Shown: positions 3,593 through 13,506, numbered from the stretch's first letter. The stretch: DNA of 64,000 nucleotides from Alphaproteobacteria bacterium (GCA_963422645.2 CAXXVO010000007.1:800001-864000); one strand, 5' to 3'. The notes: generated from the letters alone by a model not told the origin. A program made the numbers and translations.

Positions 3593-4438
3593 GTGACGCC
3601 CGCGCTCTCATCCGTCGGCGCGCTGGCGCGGGTGGCCGACTACGACCGCTACCTCTCCGCCGTGTTCGCGCCGGCCCCCCGCCGCGAGGCGCTATTCGCA
3701 CTGATCGCCTTCAACCACGAGATCGCGCGAATTCCCGAGGCGGTGAGCGAGCCGATGCTGGGCCGCATCCGGCTGCAATGGTGGCGCGAGGTCCTCGATG
3801 CGGTCTATGCCGGTGAGCCCGCCCGGCGCCACGAGGTGGCGCTGCCGTTGGCCGACTCGATCCGTGTGTGCGGGCTCGACCGCGCCCCCTTCGACGCGCT
3901 GCTGGAGGCGCGGGAGGACGATCTGGGGTCGGAAGGACCGGCCGATCTTGCGGCGCTGGAGCGCTATGCCGCCGCCACCGGCGGGAGCCTTGCGGAACTC
4001 ATGGTGCGGGCTGCCGGCGCCGACCCTGGCCCGGCGCTGGAGGCGGGGCGGCAGGTCGGCACCGCCTGGGCCTTGGTCGGCACGCTTCGGGCGGCGCCCC
4101 GAACTGCGGCGCAGGGCCGGGTCACGCTCCCGGCCGACCTGCTCTCCAAGGCCGGGATCGCCGCCGAGGATCTGGGGGCGGGCCGGGGGTTCGAGCGTTT
4201 CGCCGCCCTTGCCGAGCCGGTGGCGGACCGCGCCGCCGAATTGCTGGCCACGGCGCGGCAGGCCCGGCGCGCGGTGCCCCGGCAGTGCCTGGGCGTGCTG
4301 CTGATTGCCCGCCTCGCCGATCTCTACCTGGCGCAATTGCGGCGCGCCGCCTGGGACCCGCGCAACCCGCGCGTGGCCTGCGGCCCGCTCCGCAAGCAGG
4401 CGGTGATGCTGAGGGGCGCGGTGTTCGGACGCTACTGA
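3593..4438 (+). CDS. Squalene/phytoene synthase family protein (NDUFAF6-like)
   Basis: DYDRYLSAVFAP, AFNHEIARIPEAVSEPMLGRIRLQWWRE. Confidence 0.85.
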   Translation: MTPALSSVGALARVADYDRYLSAVFAPAPRREALFALIAFNHEIARIPEAVSEPMLGRIRLQWWREVLDAVYAGEPARRHEVALPLADSIRVCGLDRAPFDALLEAREDDLGSEGPADLAALERYAAATGGSLAELMVRAAGADPGPALEAGRQVGTAWALVGTLRAAPRTAAQGRVTLPADLLSKAGIAAEDLGAGRGFERFAALAEPVADRAAELLATARQARRAVPRQCLGVLLIARLADLYLAQLRRAAWDPRNPRVACGPLRKQAVMLRGAVFGRY

Positions 4439-4490
4439 CCCTCACGCGGCGAGGGAAGGGGCCGGTCACCCGGTCCACCCCGGATCAGGG

Positions 4491-4540
4491 TGTAGCCGGA
4501 CGAAAGTCTTTGCGAATCGCGGCCGGAAGTCTTTGCGAAT
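4491..4540 (+). repeat. Left end: two copies of putative transposase-binding motif AAGTCTTTGCGAAT
   Basis: Copies within 4498-4518 and at 4527-4540. Confidence 0.85.
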
Positions 4541-4662
4541 GGCCTGGAAAATCGTCTGGTTTTCGGGGCTGAATCGGGCTGGAAAAACCGGCCTGTGCAT
4601 GGGCCGTGAAGGAGCGCTGCGCGGGGGGTTCAGGGCCCGTGCACGGGCGGTGCGTGAGGGTT

Positions 4663-5544
4663 TCAGGCGCGGTCGGGACCGGGGCGGGCGCCGGGGCGGC
4701 ACGGGCGTTCGAGTTCGGCCTTCCACCATTCGGGGTCTTCGACGGCGCGTTCTGCGGCGTCGTATCCGTCGTGACCGGTCCATCTTCCGGGGTCGGCGTC
4801 GGCGTACCATCGGCCTGCGCCGCGGTGTCGTTCGAGGGCGTCGTCGATGCGGGCGACCTGGTCCGCCGGGCGTCCCCGGCAGAAGCGCTCGAAGAAGGCG
4901 TTGAGGCGGCATCTGGGGCAGCGTCCGCAGGGCTCTGCCGCGGCGGTGCACCGGTAGGTGAGCGCCTCCAGCCCGGGCGGGAGCAGGGCCTGGAGCATGA
5001 AGCGCCCGGCGACGGGTCCGAAGGGGTCGTCCCGCGACGGCGGCCACTGCGCGCCGTCCTCCCAGCCGGGGAAGAAGGGGAGTTCCATGGGGACGGCGGT
5101 GCGCGCGCGGTAGACGGGATACCAGTACATGCGGTGCATGTCGTCGGCGGTGCCCCACGAGGTGATGCCGAGCATCACCCGGTCGGCGCGGTGGCGCTCG
5201 GCCTCGTCGGCGTGGGTTGCGTACCGGTCGAGGCCCCAGGGGCCGAATGTGGGGTCGCAGACGCCCTCCCACCCTCTCCCGTCCCTGATCGGGTATTCGG
5301 CGCCGGCGTCGAGGTCGAGGCGCAGGGCGTCGCGGCTGACGTGGCGCACGGGCCGGACGTTGCGGGAGAGCCAGTCTGCGACGGCCTCGCTTGCGGCCTG
5401 CTCGCGGGCGATGCGCTCCGGCAGCTCGCGGGCCGGTTCGCGGTAGTAGGAGAGGACGACCTCGTCTTCGGTCTCGCGCAGGACGAGGAGGGCGAGGGCG
5501 GTGCTGTCGATGCCGCCGCCTGCGGGGACGAGGGTGCGGCGCAT
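4663..5544 (-). CDS. QueC-like PP-loop ATPase with C-terminal Zn motif (phage-encoded)
   Basis: N-terminal TLVPAGGGIDSTALA (variant of SGGxDS) and CTAAAEPCGRCPRC (C-x6-CGxCxxC). Start at MRRTL. Confidence 0.65.
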   Translation of the reverse strand: MRRTLVPAGGGIDSTALALLVLRETEDEVVLSYYREPARELPERIAREQAASEAVADWLSRNVRPVRHVSRDALRLDLDAGAEYPIRDGRGWEGVCDPTFGPWGLDRYATHADEAERHRADRVMLGITSWGTADDMHRMYWYPVYRARTAVPMELPFFPGWEDGAQWPPSRDDPFGPVAGRFMLQALLPPGLEALTYRCTAAAEPCGRCPRCRLNAFFERFCRGRPADQVARIDDALERHRGAGRWYADADPGRWTGHDGYDAAERAVEDPEWWKAELERPCRPGARPGPDRA

Positions 5545-6341: not shown

Positions 6342-7699
6342 TCAGCCCGCCGGCGCGGCGATATGGGCGCGGGCGAGGCCGAAGCAGAGGTACTTGACGG
6401 TGGGAATCTGCCCCCGTTCCCAGGTCCAGGTCCACTCGACCTGGACCACGCGACCGGTAATCGCGTCGCCGGCGGCGTAGCCGGTCCAGGCGGCGTCGTC
6501 GAGGTCGTCGCGGCCGTCGGCGGCGCGCACGCGCACCGTCGGTTGGACGGGGGAATCGGACTCCCAGGTGAGCAGCGACACGACGCCGTCCTGGCCGAGG
6601 GCCGCCGGCATGGAGGTGTAGACGGTGGGCTCCGCCGTCCAGCCCGCGCCGGGGAGCGCCCATCCGGTCCAGGCGTCCCAGGTGGTGAGGCCGCCCCAGG
6701 CGTAGTCGGCGGCGCCGGTGGCGGGATCGGCCCAGGAGAAGTCGAGGGCCGCGCCGGCGAGCGTGCCGCGGGTCCATCCCTCGGCGCTGGGGCAGGCCCA
6801 GAACAGGCTCTCGCCCCGGCGCTGGGCGCCGAGGCGCGCGGTGACGCGGCTCTCGGGGCCGTAGCGCCCGCCCGTGTCGAGCGGGCGAAAGGAGAAGATC
6901 CAGTCGCCGGCGGCGGGCTCGACGGCCTCCCACGGGCTTGCGGTGAGCCACCCGCGGTGGATCGCGCGCAGCTCTTCCCACGGCGTGCCCGGATCTGCGG
7001 GCCAGCCGGGCGCGGGTCCGTATCTGATGCGGACGCCGAGCAGGTCGGGGTCGGCCGGCTCGACCCAGCGGAAGCGCCGGGTGCCGTCGCCGAGGCGCTC
7101 GACGTGGGCCTCGGTGACCGCGCCGGGGGGCGTGCGCAGGCCGCGGATCGTATATGCGGTGCGGTGCGGCGGTCCGCCGCCGCGGGGCAGGACGACGATC
7201 TCGATCCAGCCCTCGGGCGGGCTGGTCCAGCGCGCCTCCGTGTCGCCGCCGTCGAGGCTGGCGACGGTGCGCATGGGCCGGCGCTCCCACGACGCGCGGA
7301 CCTCGGCGCCGCGCCAGTCGCCGGCGACGGTGAGGGAGAGCGCGATCTCGACGAGGAAGGCGGCGCCGACGCGGATCAGGGTCTCGGTGACGGTGGCGTG
7401 CAGGACCCGCGGCAGATTGCGCCGTATCTGCGGCAGATCGACCGAGAGGTCGGCGGTGGCGGCAGCGTAGTAGGCGCCGACCTCGTCGACGGCCTCGAGG
7501 CGCACCCGGTCCCCGGATCTGGGGCTGACGCCCACGACCTTCACCCTCGCCGGCCCGGCGCCTGCGGGATAGAGGCGCCAGAGCGTGTCGACGGGCTCGC
7601 CGATTCCGTCCTCCGGCGCGGGTGTCGTCCACACGCGGGCGGTTTCGGCGCCGTTCGCGCGCGCGTCGGAGCCGGGCGGGCCGGCATGGGCGCGCACGG
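6342..7699 (-). pseudogene. 5'-truncated phage tail-tip / host-specificity (J-like, FnIII) protein
   Basis: VKVVGVSPRSGDRVRLEAVDEVGAYY and FRWVEPADPDLLGVRIRY are FnIII-like. The frame is cut at the inner transposon end (7700). Confidence 0.65.
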
Positions 7700-7798
7700 T
7701 GAGCGTGCGCCCAGCATTTGATGGTGCGGTTTTCGGATTATTTGATGTTCGTGATGCGGCGCTTGGTTGATCTGCGAGAGCGGTGAGTGGCCTGGCTT

Positions 7799-8668
7799 TC
7801 ATCGAGACCGCAGGAGCATCTCGTTCCAGTCCTTGGCGTGTCGTGGGCGCAACCTTTTCACCCTTGGATCGTTGAGCACGAGATGCTCGGCGGCAGTGTC
7901 GCCGGCGCTGTCTGCGTCGTAGGCACAGACGATGCGACGTGGCTTCCACTCCTTGATCCAGGGCGGGACCGAGCTGGCGATGCCGGCGGTTGAGGCGACG
8001 ACGGCGCCGTTCTCGCGCGTCCCCTCGACGCGCAGGCTTCGTGCAGAGATGGCGTCGACGGCGCTCTCGGTGAGGATGACGAGGGCGGGCTGGTTTCGGT
8101 CGCAGTGGAGCCAGAAGCCGCCACGCGCCTTGCGCGATCCCGGGGCCATGCCCCTGAAGCGTTTTGTTCCGGGCTGCGGCGCGGTGCCGAGGATCTCGGC
8201 GCCGGTCGTGTGCCCGCTGGCGTTTCGGCAGATGAAGACGGCGTTGATCCTGTCATCGGCGTAGAGGAGGCCTCGGCCGTGGCAGGCTTCGAGCACGTCG
8301 GTGCCGATAGCGCGTTGGCGGATGAGGGCGTCCCGGACCCTGGGCCAGGCGCGGGGACTGGGCCTTGGCAGCCGCAGGCGTCGCGGGGCGGCTGGGATGG
8401 TGGTGATCTCCCTCCGCCCCTCATGGCTTCCGAGGAAGCGGAGGGCTTCCGGGAAGCGGCATCCCGTCGCATGGATGACGAGGTCGATGGCGCCACCCCC
8501 TCCCGTGCCGCGCAGGTGATCGAAGAACTTCTCGCCGTTGATGCTGATGACCGAGCCCCCGCGCTTGAAGCGCGCCCGGTCGGTCGGGTCTCTGCGGTAG
8601 CCGAGGGCGGCGGCGACCCGGTCGAGGGGGATGTTGCGGCAGGTGGCCAGGGGATCGCCGCCGCTCAT
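7799..8668 (-). CDS. DUF3991/Toprim primase-like protein
   Basis: KFFDHLRGTGGGGAIDLV (primase N-terminal-like), ILTESAVDAIS, VCAYDADSAGD and KDWNE Toprim motifs. Confidence 0.8.
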   Translation of the reverse strand: MSGGDPLATCRNIPLDRVAAALGYRRDPTDRARFKRGGSVISINGEKFFDHLRGTGGGGAIDLVIHATGCRFPEALRFLGSHEGRREITTIPAAPRRLRLPRPSPRAWPRVRDALIRQRAIGTDVLEACHGRGLLYADDRINAVFICRNASGHTTGAEILGTAPQPGTKRFRGMAPGSRKARGGFWLHCDRNQPALVILTESAVDAISARSLRVEGTRENGAVVASTAGIASSVPPWIKEWKPRRIVCAYDADSAGDTAAEHLVLNDPRVKRLRPRHAKDWNEMLLRSR

Positions 8669-8709
8669 TGCCGGGTCCCGGCGAAGGTCTGCTTGGAAGG
8701 GAGGCTGAC

Positions 8710-8770
8710 GGCGTTCCCGTTCCTGTACCCTTCAACGCTTAAGAGTTCCGGGAACGGGAACGGGAACGCC
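8710..8770. repeat. 14-bp inverted repeat with (GGGAAC)3 between helicase and primase genes
   Basis: GGCGTTCCCGTTCC (8710-8723) is the reverse complement of GGAACGGGAACGCC (8757-8770). Confidence 0.7.
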
Positions 8771-9769
8771 TCATCCCGCACTTCCGTTGATGGCGGCAGG
8801 GGATTGCGGCTCCCGGTGCGCCTCGGCGGCTGCGAGGCGATAGCCACCCCTGGGCGCCCGTTCGATGCGCCCCTCCCTGGTGAGGCTCTCGATGGCGGCA
8901 ACGACGGTGGCGTTGCGGGCAGCGGCGCGTGAGCGGATCTGGGCTTTCGAGAGCGGCTTTTCGGCCTGCTCGATCGCCTTGAAGACGCGCTGCTCGACGG
9001 TGGCGGGCTCGTGCCTGTCTTCATCTGCCGCGTCCTGGTGCAGACGGAAGGCCGGCCCATGTCCGCCGTCGACGAGTTCCAGCTCGATGTCGTTGAGGCC
9101 CCGGGCGTCGCGCTGCTCGACCGTCATGACGATCTTCTTGTCGCGCCGGCGCAGGTACAGATTTGAGTCACCCCAAGCGTGCAGCTCGCTGCTCCCGCGC
9201 AGGGCCTGCCCCGGCCGGGTGCCGCCGCTCTTGCGGGCGTGGTGGACGAGGAGGACGGCGGTTTCGAAGCGGCGCTGCAGTTCGCGCAGGAAGCCGAGGA
9301 TGGGGGCGATCTCTGCGACGGCGTTCTCGTCGACGCTGTGCAGGCGGACCAGGGGATCGAGGATCAGGAGGCGCGGTTCGATGCGCTCCACGGTCTGCTG
9401 CAGGCGTTGACGGTCGCCGGGCCGGTCGAGACGCAGGGTGGGCACGTCGATGACGGCGATGTCGAGTTCGTCGAAGGGGGTGGCGGCGGCGCGGGCGATC
9501 CCCTGCAGACGCTTGCGCACCCTGTGGCCGGCGTCCTCGGCGGCGAAGAGCAGCACGGTGCCGCTTGCGCTGGGGCGGTAGTGGCGCAGGCATGGGACGC
9601 CGGTGGCCACGGCGACGGCGAGATCGAGCGCGAGCAGGGATTTGCCGCACTTGGGCTCGCCGCCGACGATGCCCACGGCCTGCTCGGCCCACAGCGTGTC
9701 CACCATCCACTGTTGCGCCCGGGGGCGATCCTCGAGCTGCATCGGCGCCCGTGTCGGGAAGCCCTTCAC
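8771..9769 (-). CDS. AAA_25 / RepA-like (RecA-superfamily) helicase with C-terminal winged HTH
   Basis: GGEPKCGKS Walker A, FAAED, LLILDPLVRLH, VHHARK and ALRGSSELHAWGD. GTG start at 9769 overlaps the upstream stop. Confidence 0.8.
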   Translation of the reverse strand: MKGFPTRAPMQLEDRPRAQQWMVDTLWAEQAVGIVGGEPKCGKSLLALDLAVAVATGVPCLRHYRPSASGTVLLFAAEDAGHRVRKRLQGIARAAATPFDELDIAVIDVPTLRLDRPGDRQRLQQTVERIEPRLLILDPLVRLHSVDENAVAEIAPILGFLRELQRRFETAVLLVHHARKSGGTRPGQALRGSSELHAWGDSNLYLRRRDKKIVMTVEQRDARGLNDIELELVDGGHGPAFRLHQDAADEDRHEPATVEQRVFKAIEQAEKPLSKAQIRSRAAARNATVVAAIESLTREGRIERAPRGGYRLAAAEAHREPQSPAAINGSAG

Positions 9770-10599
9770 CGCCGTGCCCTCTTCGGCTTGGCGGGCTCGC
9801 CCAGGATCTCCATGAAGAGCTTCTCGTCGAGAACCTCGCGGTTCTTCTCGGCGCCGGCGGCGAGCAGCATGTCGCCCATGACGGTAAGCGCCCTGGGGTT
9901 GCCGCCGGCGTGGGTGACCAGGGTGTCCTTGAGCTCTGCGCTCATGAGGCCCGGATTGCCGGCCTGCTCGACCAGATGGTCGAGCAGGGCCGCGAGGTCG
10001 CCGGCGTCTGCCTGGGTCATGACCAGGCGCTGGCGCAGGCGCGAGGCGATGGGCTGCAAGTCGGGCTGGCGGAGCCTGTCGATCAGGCGGCTGTCGCCGG
10101 CGAAGACGACCGAGAGGATGGCGCGCGAGTCGAAGTCGGTGGACGCCAGCAGGCGGATCTCGGAGATCACCGAGGGCAGCAGCTCCTGGGCCTCGTCGAT
10201 GAGCACCACGGGCCGCATGCGGGTGTCGTCGACATGGGTGAGCCATCGCTCGCGCAGGTTTTTGAAGCTGGCCCAGCGGTTGTTGTACATCAGGTCGACG
10301 CCGAACATCCCGCCGATCTCGCGGTAGAAGTCGGACAGCCTGGAAGAGGGGTGGGTGATGGCACAGACCCTGAGCCCGTCCGAGCGGCCGAGGCGGTCGG
10401 CGAGCACGCGCAACGCCACGCTCTTTCCGGTGCCGGGCTCGCCGGCGATCAACGCGAAGCCGCCCTGGCGCACAAGATGATGCTCGATTCTGAGGCAGAA
10501 GCTGTCGACGGCGGGGCTCACCATGAGGCTGTCGACCGGAAGGTCGGTGGCGAAGGGGTTCCATTTGAGCCCGTAGAAGGTGAGCAGCTCGCGGTTCAT
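9766..10599 (-). CDS. ExeA/TnsC/MuB-like AAA+ ATPase (transposition helper)
   Basis: YGLKWNPF, GEPGTGKS, VVLIDEAQEL and GGNPRAL; coupled to the transposase stop (ATGA). Confidence 0.85.
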   Translation of the reverse strand: MNRELLTFYGLKWNPFATDLPVDSLMVSPAVDSFCLRIEHHLVRQGGFALIAGEPGTGKSVALRVLADRLGRSDGLRVCAITHPSSRLSDFYREIGGMFGVDLMYNNRWASFKNLRERWLTHVDDTRMRPVVLIDEAQELLPSVISEIRLLASTDFDSRAILSVVFAGDSRLIDRLRQPDLQPIASRLRQRLVMTQADAGDLAALLDHLVEQAGNPGLMSAELKDTLVTHAGGNPRALTVMGDMLLAAGAEKNREVLDEKLFMEILGEPAKPKRARR

Positions 10600-12074
10600 G
10601 ACGGATCTCCCTGATCGTCGTCCTCGCCCGGACCGGGCGTCTTGTTATGGGGTACCCAGGCCGGCGGCAGGCCTGTTGCGGCCTGGGCGTCGAGCACGCC
10701 CTTGAGCAGCGGCGGAAGTTCGCCGACGCCCGCGCTGGCGCCGCCATGGTCGCTGCCGGGTCTCGCAGGACGGCGGACGCCATCGGCGTTGCCGCGCTTG
10801 TCGAGGGGGTACAGCGTGCACAGCCGCTCGCCGCTTCGGCCTTCCACCAGATCGACGCCGCTGAGGTCCCAGCGCGCATAGCGGACCCAGAGCGTCCTCA
10901 GGTGGCGCCACGGCTGTGGCACCTGGTAGCGGATGCCCTCGACCGAGACGGTGCCGTCCGAGCGCCTGAGCGTGCGCTTCCTGGCGATGCGGAAGGCCGC
11001 CTTGAGCTCGTCCGAGGCGGGGCAGGGCCTCGATGCCTTGACGCTCCCGGCGAGGCGTTCATGCGGCGTCATGCCGAGCTCGCGGTGCACCCGCCGATGG
11101 TAGTCCTGCTCCAGCCAGGCTATGGTGGCGTCGTTGAGCATCTTCAGGGTGAGCGCGTCGACGCCTTCGAGCTGAGCCATCAGGCGGCCCTCGACCGTGC
11201 CCCAGAACGACTCGATTTTTCCATTTTGATGGGGGCTGTAAGCGAGTGTCGTGGCCCCCACGATGCCGATGAGGCGGTGCAAGCCCTCCTCGACCTCGCC
11301 CGCCGTCATCGGCCCGCCGTTGTCGGTCAGCAGGGACCTGGGCAAGTCCCTCTTCATGAAGGCCTGACAGAGCCCGTGGACGAAGACCTCGGCGGTCTCC
11401 TCCAGGTACCACTGCAGGTGGCAGCCAAGCCTGGAGTGGTCGTCGAGGAAGCCGAGCAGGATGGGCGTCTGCCATTCGCCCGACGCCGTCAGCACGCGGC
11501 GCTTGCCGTGGTGGAAGTCCCCGTGCCACAGCGCGTGACTGCGAGACACCTCGTAGCTAAGGACCTCGCGGGCTTCGACCGCCGGCTTGTCCTCACCCTC
11601 GTGCCACTTCCTGGGGCGCTCGCGCACCAGGCCGCGATTGCGCATCGCCCGCGTCAGCGTCGCGTAGGACGGCATCGGGCCGAGCTCGGGATGGGTCGCA
11701 ACATGAGCCTTGAGGGTCTCGTAGTGGAGCTGCGCCGCCCACGAGGGATGGACCCGGTACTGCTCGCGCAGCGCCGCGATCAGCCCCGCCGACATGGACC
11801 GCTCGCGGCCGACGTCGGTCCGAGGCTTCCGGCGCAGCGCCTTGACCGGGTCCTGCTCCTCTGCCCGCGCCCGGTAGTACCAGCGCTCGATCGTCGAGGC
11901 CGCAAAGCGCACCGGCCCCTTGCCCGACGGGTGCTCCCAGTCGCGCTGCGACAGACGCTCGAACTCGGCCCCCAGCTGGCCTGCAGGCGGCGGTGAAGCC
12001 AGAAGCGGCCCCACCACCGCAAAGCGCAGCCGGGCCCACTTCTCGCGCCTGGCGCCTGCGTCGTCCTTGTCCAT
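10596..12074 (-). CDS. DDE transposase (rve core with Mu-transposase-like C-terminal domain)
   Basis: WHGDFHH...FLDDHSR, LTDNGG, NGKIESFW and RSDGTVSVEGIRY. Start taken at MDKDD. Confidence 0.9.
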   Translation of the reverse strand: MDKDDAGARREKWARLRFAVVGPLLASPPPAGQLGAEFERLSQRDWEHPSGKGPVRFAASTIERWYYRARAEEQDPVKALRRKPRTDVGRERSMSAGLIAALREQYRVHPSWAAQLHYETLKAHVATHPELGPMPSYATLTRAMRNRGLVRERPRKWHEGEDKPAVEAREVLSYEVSRSHALWHGDFHHGKRRVLTASGEWQTPILLGFLDDHSRLGCHLQWYLEETAEVFVHGLCQAFMKRDLPRSLLTDNGGPMTAGEVEEGLHRLIGIVGATTLAYSPHQNGKIESFWGTVEGRLMAQLEGVDALTLKMLNDATIAWLEQDYHRRVHRELGMTPHERLAGSVKASRPCPASDELKAAFRIARKRTLRRSDGTVSVEGIRYQVPQPWRHLRTLWVRYARWDLSGVDLVEGRSGERLCTLYPLDKRGNADGVRRPARPGSDHGGASAGVGELPPLLKGVLDAQAATGLPPAWVPHNKTPGPGEDDDQGDPS

Positions 12075-12123
12075 TCCGGCATCCCTCCCTCGCCGCATCG
12101 GAGAGATGCCCATGTAGAACGCC

Positions 12124-12741
12124 CTATCCGGGCGTGACAGGAACACTTTCTGCGGGCGGCGCCGAGCCATCGCCGAGCCCGCAATAGCCCGTCCACGGCT
12201 TGAACCAGATCAGGCTCAGGAACAGACGCTCACCGAAGCGTCCGCCCCGCATCTGCCGCAGCACGAAGAGCAGCGGCACCTCCTCGGGTGGCATCACCAG
12301 TTCGCCACGCTTCGCTCCCCAGGGCTCCGTCGCCGGGAACGCCTCCAGCCACCACTTCCGCCAGCGGCGCAGTGTGGCGACCGAGACCCCCCACTTCCGC
12401 TTGATCGTCTGCAACCGCACCCCGCCTCTCAGAACCAGTGCACTCAACAGAACGAACAGGGCGCCCAGATAAAAGCGGCGCCCGAAGAATCGTACCGATG
12501 GTGGGGTCGCTCGCAGGCGGCAATCCGCGCAGCAGAAGCTGAACCGCCGCGTGCCCTCTTCCCTCAACTCGGCTGCCAGACCGTACGGCTTGCGCGGATA
12601 CGTCGCGCTGTGCAGCTTGCCGGGGCAGTGTCGGCAGCCCGCCTCGCGGCAGCGCGCCGCCTCGGCCTCATCGACCTCGCGCAGCCAGGCCCAGACCAGG
12701 GCGTTGCAAAGCATGGAGTGGCGGAAAATGTTGTGCGACAT
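12124..12741 (-). CDS. Cys-rich Zn-finger/HTH protein, first gene of the inner transposon
   Basis: GCRHCPGKLHSATYPRKP, RFSFCCADCRLRATPPSVRFFGRR and HTH-like GVSVATLRRWRKWW. Confidence 0.7.
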   Translation of the reverse strand: MSHNIFRHSMLCNALVWAWLREVDEAEAARCREAGCRHCPGKLHSATYPRKPYGLAAELREEGTRRFSFCCADCRLRATPPSVRFFGRRFYLGALFVLLSALVLRGGVRLQTIKRKWGVSVATLRRWRKWWLEAFPATEPWGAKRGELVMPPEEVPLLFVLRQMRGGRFGERLFLSLIWFKPWTGYCGLGDGSAPPAESVPVTPG

Positions 12742-12789
12742 TGGGGCCGTCTCTGGCGATTGTGACCGTCACCACGAGACAAAGCCCCC

Positions 12790-12814
12790 CGGCGAACTTC
12801 TTGCAAGTTCGCCG
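12790..12814. promoter_or_regulatory. Perfect 10-bp stem hairpin upstream of the transposon operon
   Basis: CGGCGAACTT-CTTGC-AAGTTCGCCG. Confidence 0.45.
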
Positions 12815-12891
12815 AGGGGCACCCGCCCCAAAACCTCAACAAATCCGAGCGGATCAGGCCCCGATCCCCGCTGAAAGACCGCGCGCGCTCA

Positions 12892-13506
12892 ACGGCGCCC
12901 ACGCCCGGAACCGTCCGCGTCCACAACGAGAGCGAGACCTGGCAGCCCCTCGCCCCCGACCTCGGCGGCCGCGACCTCGACGCAACATCCCGCCTCTTCC
13001 GCAACCACCTGCTCGGCGGCGCCGGCATGCCCGAGCACTGGTTCGGCGGCGGCGGCGACGTCAACCGCGCAACCGCCGCAGAGATGGGCGATCCCGCCTT
13101 CAAGACCCTCAAGATGCGCCAGAGGCTGTGGACCGAGATCCTGCGCCGGGCCGCAGACTACGCCATCGCCCGCAGGCTCGACCCCTCCGGCGCATCATGG
13201 CCCGATCCCGCAGACCCCGCCCTCGCCGTCTCCGTCGAATGGCCCGAGATGGTGGTCGCCGACGCCTCCCGACACGCCGCCGCGCTCGCCCAGACCGCAG
13301 GCGCCGCGGCGCTGGCCATCGAGCGCGGCCTGCTCTCGGACGCCACCGCGCTCCGCGTCATCGCCGCCGTCGCCGGGCGCCTCGGCGTCGAGATCGACGC
13401 CGACGCCGAACTCGAGGCGGCGCGCGAAGACGCCGCCGGACGGGCCGAAGAAGACGCCTTCCGCGAGCCCCCGCAGGACGAGGACGCCGACGACGGCGAG
13501 GCGTAG
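12892..13506 (+). pseudogene. 5'-truncated phage portal protein
   Basis: Frame extends upstream of the listed Met: PTPGTVRVHNESETWQPLAPDL...NHLLGGAGMPEHWFGGGGDVNRATAAEM...RQ. It begins at the transposon end and precedes a gpF-like gene. Confidence 0.7.

Follow-up and report, generated by a model that had tools for sequence, protein, structure and literature searches.

A Tn6049-lineage DDE transposon with a RepA-type helicase as a core gene and a putative origin beside it

The DNA analyzed here (hereafter the window) is a stretch of 64,000 nucleotides from Alphaproteobacteria bacterium (GCA_963422645.2, CAXXVO010000007.1:800001-864000), and positions 7700-12891 of it are occupied by a mobile element of 5192 bp with five co-oriented genes, all on the minus strand. 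The element is a discrete, autonomous DDE transposon whose core is homologous to that of Tn6049; following this core are the gene for a RepA-type helicase, which is a core gene of the family, a palindrome of tandem hexamers, and the gene for a primase-like protein. The explanation that we favor, and to which we give somewhat better than even chances, is that a DDE transposon of the Tn6049 lineage has been joined to a minimal helicase/origin replicon, which probably copies the element's own DNA. What is new is the five-gene form with its primase, the shared phylogeny of helicase and transposase, the family-wide repeat site, and the correspondence between this site and the recognition helix of the helicase.

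The extent of the element, as first described, proved to be exact, since identity among the copies in the source genome begins at 7700 and stops at 12891. The primase-side end, TGAGCGTGCGC (7700..7710), and the zinc-finger-side end, GCGCGCGCTCA (12881..12891), form an inverted repeat in which 10 of 11 bases match. A target-site duplication, ACGG, is present on both flanks (7696..7699 and 12892..12895), which read ...cacgg/TGAGCG on the left and GCTCA/acggcg on the right. BLAST recovered 44 pieces of the element from the source genome at 89-100% identity, eight of full length and approximately 36 partial. Together these amount to 120,171 bp, which is equivalent to 23 copies and to 2.03% of the genome. 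The eight full copies measure 5189-5192 bp, are 99.8-100% identical, and each extends from TGAGCG (7700) to CGCTCA (12891); all five reading frames are uninterrupted in seven of them. Three bases at 11268 of the window copy are absent from the majority of copies in the sequencing runs. Duplications of 4 or 5 bp (ATGT, ACGG, GGGAA, CCTGC, CAAGG, and CCGG), read by eye, accompany six of the 13 source-genome copies that could be reconstructed, while in two related genomes direct repeats of 4-6 nt (a single apparent 6) flank 14/14 copies. Two related metagenome-assembled genomes (MAGs) hold a multicopy four-gene unit of 4384 or 4409 bp, which ends 270-330 bp past the helicase gene; the ends in relatives were set by comparing near-identical copies. 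Shared ends, multiple copies, and target duplication thus support the proposal of a discrete DDE transposon, and its five co-oriented genes lie where they had been placed.

The transposition core consists of three genes. The first (12124..12741, minus strand; 205 aa) encodes a Zn-ribbon plus helix-turn-helix (HTH) protein, with a four-Cys ribbon, which is a homologue of the first open reading frame (ORF) of Tn6049. Residues C36, C39, C70, C71, and C74 are invariant across the family alignment, and the HTH, of the HTH_23/HTH_28 type, is recognized by HTH_23 in 18 of 20 family members; in the window protein the match has E 0.0018. Its structural model has a mean pLDDT of only 57, and a profile comparison with the DUF6431 protein of a distant relative (probability 51%, E 1.6e-4) is a lead only. 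The protein is probably an end-binding or regulatory partner of the transposase.

The second gene (10596..12074, minus strand) encodes an rve-type DDE transposase. Its open frame reaches 12170, but we place the start at the ATG at 12074, giving 492 aa, because the homologues are about 491 aa in length. Against Pfam the window protein scores 23 bits for rve, below the cut-off of 32.6, and rve_3 is likewise below its cut-off; rve matches all 22 aligned family members, in which D186, D251, and E288 are invariant. The best NCBIfam model is IS481 (NF033577), at 109.9 bits against a cut-off of 224 that is not reached, and whereas the IS481 family is a single-gene insertion sequence the present element has five genes. 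The Mu-like C-terminus that had been ascribed to this protein is a weak point: Mu-transpos_C is matched weakly by three of the 22 family members (best E 5.6e-4) but not by the window transposase at E up to 1. Within the last 40 residues (window 10596-10700) a family-wide motif, PLL...ATGLPPAW, precedes an acidic tail; by analogy with other transposase/ATPase pairs this motif is a candidate docking peptide for the ATPase.

The third gene (9766..10599, minus strand; 277 aa) specifies a MuB/ExeA-like ATPase of the AAA_22 type (E 6.2e-19; 69 bits against a cut-off of 27). It matches phrog_296, "DNA transposition protein," at E 6e-19 and TIGR03015 at 97.8 bits, which is below cut-off, with weak matches to TniB (in two of 21 members) and to MuB 8xvb (E 0.18). 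The stop-to-start overlaps noted among transposase, ATPase, and helicase are real, the sequence being ATGA at the first junction and GTGA at the second, and they recur in many loci. The eight antisense ORFs of the element carry no Pfam domain, and the element has no match in Rfam, from which we conclude, in agreement with the preliminary description, that there is neither resolvase nor other cargo.

The affinities of this core lie with Tn6049. The best transposase matches in PLSDB, with 47.7% identity over 95% of the length, are proteins annotated "IS481 family transposase" from Cupriavidus metallidurans plasmids and P. aeruginosa pHS87a. The passages on Tn6049 in two papers describe it as a 3.5-kb element present in 12 copies in strain CH34, always with an ATPase gene designated "gspA" (PMC2864759), and as having 12-bp inverted repeats and a 4-bp direct repeat (PMC4739549). 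In the copy on pMOL30 we located the terminal repeats 3517 bp apart, and the region as annotated on the matching plasmids contains a 181-aa "transposase," the DDE gene, the gene for an AAA ATPase, and an ORF of 71 aa. The likeness to our element extends to the first ORF (41% identical over 152 aa, E 2e-33, in the pMOL30 copy), the transposase (47.7%), the ATPase (about 50%), the gene order, and the transposase-ATPase overlap, as well as to the short inverted repeats beginning TG, the multicopy state, and the 4-bp direct repeat, the duplications here being of 4-5 bp. The differences are in length (3517 bp vs 5192 bp), in the end (TGTGCATAAGCA vs TGAGCGTGCGC here), and above all in the region occupied here by helicase, hexamer palindrome, and primase, in place of which Tn6049 has the 71-aa ORF and an ordinary hairpin. 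The 71-aa ORF was considered as a helicase remnant and rejected, there being no similarity. No mechanism for Tn6049 has been published in the literature that we searched, and the passages of the two papers cited above describe no helicase.

Transposase relatives of about 491 aa number thousands in metagenomes. More distant ones (29% transposase identity), on plasmids of C. necator and A. caldus, combine a DUF6431 protein with a DDE gene, followed in C. necator by an ATPase and a small ORF. Contigs whose elements have transposases at 74-84% identity are assigned by binning to Alphaproteobacteria, Gemmatimonadota, Acidimicrobiales, and Chloroflexota; a further relative, at 70%, bears the name Acidobacteriota. 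This distribution reflects either transfer across phyla or mis-binned repeat contigs. Since the core is homologous to the named but unstudied Tn6049, which is without helicase and primase, the element is not wholly undescribed, and to that extent the suggestion of an undescribed system has to be withdrawn. A search of the full-text literature yielded no report of a helicase or origin of this kind in a DDE transposon, ISfinder and TnCentral being outside that search.

The gene that follows the ATPase (8771..9769, minus strand; 332 aa, GTG start) encodes an AAA_25 RepA-like helicase with a C-terminal winged helix. The AAA_25 match (E 2.5e-36) scores 125.6 bits against a cut-off of 27, and the best solved relative by sequence is RSF1010 RepA (1g8y, E 1.9e-8). 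A model based upon 25 sequences (mean pLDDT 72.8) gave RepA (1olo/1nlf) as the top Foldseek matches, followed by DnaB, RadA, Rad51, and KaiC; phage primase/helicase PHROGs are also matched. Residues G36, G37, P39, K40, and K43 of the P-loop, D138, D147, E148, and N149, as well as H176, H177, K180, R191, and G192, are invariant in 25 helicases down to 41% identity, and we read them, by analogy, as Walker A, Walker B, and an arginine finger. On the basis of domain, motifs, and fold the protein belongs to the RepA/DnaB-type (AAA_25) hexameric helicases, hexamer formation and unwinding being only predicted. Residues 258-312 are modeled as three helices (258-268, 275-282, and 286-298) and a two-stranded wing, and helicase homologues carry precomputed HTH matches of the GntR, MarR/MarR_2, or IclR type.

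The association of helicase and transposase was examined in 108 loci, 28 from species-representative genomes and 80 from metagenomes, the latter being the best 80 of at least 571 confirmed transposase relatives, with transposase identities of about 50%. All 25 close loci with room for it (74-84% transposase identity) carry the order zinc finger-transposase-ATPase-helicase as far as the contig reaches. Among the metagenome loci, 41 have the helicase right after the ATPase, nine have at least 700 bp of room without a helicase, 29 are too short, and one is without an ATPase. The resulting share of 41/50 assessable loci is biased upward because these 80 loci are those most like the query. When mapped onto the transposase tree, presence of the helicase requires one change (support 88) against a mean of 10.3 in shuffles, and the 11 helicase-less rows, Tn6049 among them, all fall on one side. 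The helicase tree repeats the transposase clades, and a Mantel comparison of transposase and helicase distances gives r=0.937 (n=35; 0/999 permutations as high), the transposase-ATPase value being likewise 0.937. Two eventualities had been named that would speak for chance capture, namely that homologous transposase-ATPase pairs usually lack the helicase/primase inside their ends, and that the phylogenies are incongruent; for the helicase we find the reverse of both. A root placed by means of two distant helicase-less relatives falls inside the helicase-bearing part of the tree, but on a very long branch (8.5 changes per column), and so does not discriminate between gain and loss of the helicase. 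Relatives of the helicase are abundant, 1617 clusters at 50% identity reaching E 1e-30, but they are rare outside the element: four weak plasmid records, three weak viral loci, and one match at 46% identity among 400 other genomes of the class. We conclude that the helicase is a core gene of the element, and not cargo.

Directly after the helicase stop lies an inverted tandem-hexamer palindrome (8695..8785, core 8710-8770), the proposed helicase binding site and origin. It reads GGC, three copies of GTTCCC, a 19-nt spacer, and GGGTAC-A-GGAACG-GGAACG-CC. The same design, with two or three tandem hexamers having a TTCC core, a spacer of 16-28 nt, and the inverted set, was seen in every helicase-bearing lineage that was read. 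A pattern search from -80 to +260 nt around the helicase stop in 41 helicase-bearing loci found the site in 33 using a relaxed pattern, where 0.027 per search interval is expected from the rest of the same loci, and in 20 using a strict one. The eight loci missed by the relaxed pattern comprise three with a frameshift-misplaced ORF end, in which the site stands at the end of helicase homology, two with truncated helicases, and three with variant spacing recognized by eye. The 11 helicase-less loci gave no strict match and eight relaxed matches in 153 kb. In the source genome the motif occurs 24 times, always inside copies of the element and never outside, which rules out its residence on other insertion sequences of that genome. 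The window spacer is only moderately richer in AT than its surroundings, with 8 G+C bases in 19 where the neighboring sequence has about 69%.

The type of hexamer goes with two residues of the helicase. Positions 286 and 287 stand at the start of the modeled third helix, the recognition helix, and agree with hexamer type in 11/11 close-clade loci: N-A occurs with GGGAAC (the window, L011, L021, L022, L023, and L035), P-A or P-K with GGTAAC (L012, L031, and L060), and A-A or A-T with GGAAAC (L033 and L034). In the large clade RVR-AA accompanies GGGAAC-type repeats and RVR-T.. accompanies GGAAG-type repeats. Between groups the C-terminal domain of the helicase diverges far faster (47-60% identity) than does the ATPase domain (76-88%). 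Locus L060 is particularly instructive, since its ATPase domain is nearest to that of L011 (87.5%), whereas its winged helix is nearest to those of L034 and L012 (74.6% and 72.9%, vs 62.7% to L011); winged helix and GGTAAC repeats are thus both those of the other group and have been exchanged together.

The fifth gene (7799..8668, minus strand; 289 aa) encodes a DUF3991/Toprim primase-like protein, with scores of 41.6 bits for DUF3991 (E 1.7e-10; cut-off 24.5) and 37.4 bits for Toprim_2 (E 3.3e-9; cut-off 22.1). Primase activity is predicted from these domains, and the protein has no relative in the Protein Data Bank (PDB) by sequence. It lies in a segment (7748..8709, minus strand; element positions 4183-5144) that is absent from the four-gene relatives L012 and L023 and is conserved at 84% nucleotide identity in L034. 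In four-gene L023 its place, after the palindrome and ahead of the terminal 48 bp, is taken by about 205 bp; these 48 bp (7700..7747, element 5145-5192) are common to the four-gene relatives and align with the end of L023 at 79%. Beyond the window a primase is present in four loci of the 108 surveyed: L033 and L034 (74-82% identity), L036 (46%), and L132, of a deep lineage (36%). The notion of a conserved helicase-primase pair consequently does not hold, relatives existing as four-gene units. L034 represents a complete five-gene element, 84% identical over all 5192 bp and flanked by a 5-bp duplication, CCGGT, which indicates that all five genes move together in a second organism, too.

Two of these loci are of irregular structure. 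L036 (7430-9931), in another MAG, is a broken element that retains, at 86-90% identity, the first ORF and residues 1-98 of the transposase. The 46% identical primase comes some 830 bp farther on, and neither ATPase nor helicase was matched there. L033 (2496-3300 and 4200-4280) has its helicase repeats and its primase separated by about 700 additional bp, which include an ORF weakly like the mobilization protein NikA (E 0.0048, below cut-off). Its inner copy of the distal end, 90.6% identical to the last 32 bp of the L012 element, is followed by the primase and then by the outer end, an arrangement which hints that the primase may have been captured between two distal ends. Relatives of the primase on plasmids (30-38% identity) coincide with features annotated as MobV relaxase or as "DUF3991 and TOPRIM" protein, and include those of 2.9-kb Paracoccus plasmids. 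The primase is, therefore, an accessory, recruited beside the repeat site in at least two deep lineages, namely the clade of the window and L132.

We read the element as an autonomous and currently active transposon of the Tn6049 lineage that would operate as follows. The IS481/IS3-like DDE transposase, together with the MuB-like AAA_22 ATPase as probable activator of target DNA, and with the Zn-ribbon/HTH protein, makes simple insertions with 4-5-bp duplications. The RepA-type hexameric helicase, translationally coupled to this core, most probably recognizes through its winged helix the inverted hexamers after its own gene, and would in this manner constitute a self-loading initiator-helicase with its own origin. 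To this the sub-lineage of the window appears to have added the Toprim primase, between the repeat site and the end of the element. The most likely use of the module would be replication of element DNA without the initiation proteins of the host, and what is replicated might be a circle, produced by excision or by copying out, or else the element in its integrated state. Donor molecules would increase in number, and the element would be able to function in many hosts. The kinship of the transposase with the IS481 and IS3 families, which transpose by copy-out-paste-in, points to a circle formed by copying out as the substrate.

Several observations weigh against a helicase/origin replicon. Seven of the 13 reconstructable copies in the source genome lack a target duplication. 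The missing duplications were considered as a sign of replicative transposition, an interpretation that we reject; recombination among many copies yields the same flanks, and the lack of a duplication therefore says nothing on mechanism. Neither an end-to-end junction nor a back-joint was seen over window 7500-13100 in the Logan contigs of three sequencing runs, a silence that is not a refutation because contigs drop rare forms. No element-size metagenome contig with overlapping ends was found, nor was one found among short genome and metagenome contigs. The module is not needed for the chemistry of transposition, since Tn6049, with its 12 copies in CH34 (PMC2864759), and its clade transpose without a helicase. 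The hexamer groups are mostly clades, so that the independent switches behind the pairing of repeats and recognition helix are few (about three or four), and there is no simple code across clades: in L033 A-A accompanies GGAAAC, whereas the large clade combines it with GGGAAC. Finally, a structured hairpin of RNA or DNA would account for the palindrome just as well, changes on both sides being found in 7 of 14 predicted pairs.

A more far-reaching version of the replicon explanation may be put forward tentatively. Elements of this kind could make up a large class of cross-phylum "transposable replicons," in which the circle left by copy-out or excision is replicated by a self-loading RepA-type initiator-helicase from the adjacent iteron origin. 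The fast-diverging winged helix and its matching repeats would then act like plasmid incompatibility groups, permitting related elements to coexist, and some lineages, that of the window among them, having added a primase, would be fully independent of host initiation.

An alternative that we regard as unlikely is that the helicase serves the fork of replicative transposition. A strand-transfer intermediate of the Mu/Tn3 type would then be taken over by the element's helicase, with the primase where present, loaded in place of the host restart primosome, and the palindrome would be a loading or pausing site near the distal end. Mu itself depends on host PriA/DnaB. The MuB-like ATPase with its phrog_296 match (E 6e-19), the three of 22 transposases that weakly match Mu-transpos_C, the position of the site 100-460 bp from the distal end in four-gene elements, and the translational coupling of a helicase that co-evolves with transposase and ATPase are all as this explanation would have them. 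The element has no resolvase, yet the 14 copies in the relatives are all simple insertions with duplications, and the best transposase family is IS481/IS3-like, of the copy-out-paste-in and not the Shapiro type. Moreover, a winged helix with lineage-specific repeats looks like recognition of an origin, not like structure-specific loading at a fork.

That the palindrome terminates or attenuates transcription of the operon, or forms a structured hairpin in RNA or DNA, with the winged helix binding something else such as the transposon ends or the transposase, seems to us quite improbable. The fold is strong (-69.8 kcal/mol, z -4.4), compensatory changes affect 7 of 14 pairs, and in four-gene elements the palindrome lies at the 3' end of the operon, all of which would suit a hairpin. 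No T-run follows the stem, however, and Rfam gave no match; each arm consists of hexamers in tandem that conserve a TTCC/GGAA core. The arms of L092, L112, L120, and L138 are not complementary, yet both keep the core together with its period and spacing, and the covariation term of alifold is only -0.25. Non-complementary arms, low covariation, and the missing T-run fit repeated protein-binding sites better than a selected stem, and the agreement of hexamer type with the recognition helix, with the joint exchange in L060, likewise tells against the hairpin. The notion that helicase and primase are a passenger module, made up of captured plasmid or island replication genes or a defense-type ATPase without part in movement or copying, may be dismissed as very unlikely: the Tn6049 clade does without both genes, the primase is patchy with plasmid relatives fused to relaxases, and L033 hints that it sits between two distal ends, but for the helicase there is a single change on the tree, co-divergence as tight as that of the ATPase, stop/start coupling, invariant catalytic motifs, and very few relatives outside the element.

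If the helicase/origin replicon is the correct reading, its closest functional counterpart is the pri-rep-ori module of Staphylococcus aureus pathogenicity islands (SaPIs), where the initiator-helicase also has a C-terminal winged helix and a separate primase gene lies beside it. The passages of PMC9371898 describe SaPI Rep as a self-loading helicase whose penta- or hexanucleotide iterons are found directly downstream of its gene, at least two per side and opposed. The layout here is the same, with at least two short repeats on each side of a centre, opposed, directly after the helicase gene. The present ATPase differs in being of the RecA-fold AAA_25/RSF1010 RepA type, and it is by its top matches (RSF1010 RepA, DnaB, RadA, and Rad51), not by direct alignment, that it is set apart from SaPI Rep; no recognized SaPI Rep title appears among the best 34 or so of at least 500 Foldseek matches of the helicase. 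A section title in the same paper (PMC9371898) states that SaPI Reps translocate 3'-5'. In addition, the primase is here downstream and optional, the spacer, at 16-28 nt, is short, and the module is carried by a DDE transposon as against an integrase-borne phage satellite. Since the proteins are apparently not homologous, the likeness is one of working in a similar manner and not of membership.

With Mu A/B, Tn7 TnsB/C, Tn552, Tn5053 TniA/B, and IS21 IstA/B the element has in common a DDE transposase of the rve fold, with an ATPase next in order, and an approximately 5-bp duplication, and its ATPase matches the PHROG of the "DNA transposition protein" of transposable phages; it differs from this group in having no TnsA, TniQ, or resolvase. 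To our knowledge none of Mu, Tn7, Tn552, Tn5053, and IS21 encodes a replicative helicase or an origin. Plasmids of the RSF1010/IncQ type have their own helicase and primase for host independence (RepA helicase and RepB' primase, with RepC as initiator), and RepA is the best match of our helicase in both sequence and fold. In contrast to RSF1010, where RepC is separate, origin recognition appears here to reside in the helicase itself, through fusion with a winged helix; the primase is DUF3991/Toprim and not RepB', and no plasmid form has been seen.

Further observations concern the surroundings of the copies. The source genome is heavily loaded with insertion sequences. In two cases of self-insertion a copy abuts the interior of another, at positions 1832 and 1582 (C3:162385-166181, with the junction at C3:164349/164350, and C6:430794-436755, with the junction at C6:432375), and these argue against strong target immunity. 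Elsewhere (C11:81206-82969, C19:10810-12968, and C8:591889-594047) copies are interrupted, with 4-bp overlaps, by two other insertion sequences, one of 1764 bp with 47 near-full copies and one of 2159 bp with 13 copies in the source genome. On one side of the window copy (12892-13503, plus strand) lies a fragment from the C-terminal part of a portal protein (phrog_10963, E 1.1e-23, covering profile positions 306-459 of 503), and on the other (6342-7697, minus strand) a weak match to "central tail fiber J" (E 6.9e-5). The 4-bp duplication implies that the portal and tail-fiber pieces were adjacent before the insertion, and hence that the site is a rearranged prophage- or gene transfer agent (GTA)-like remnant.

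Bacterial DDE transposons are taught as borrowing the replication machinery of the host. Here a replicative helicase is inherited with the transposase across a deep family that is very common in metagenomes, and is accompanied by an apparent origin of its own. If the module does replicate the element, transposons would have a novel means of multiplying their copies and of functioning in unrelated hosts; bursts such as the 2% genome load found here would be easier to explain, and the line between transposon, plasmid, and satellite would be blurred. The family also offers for study a compact helicase/origin pair with naturally varied specificities and, the whole system being only 4.4-5.2 kb, it is easy to test.

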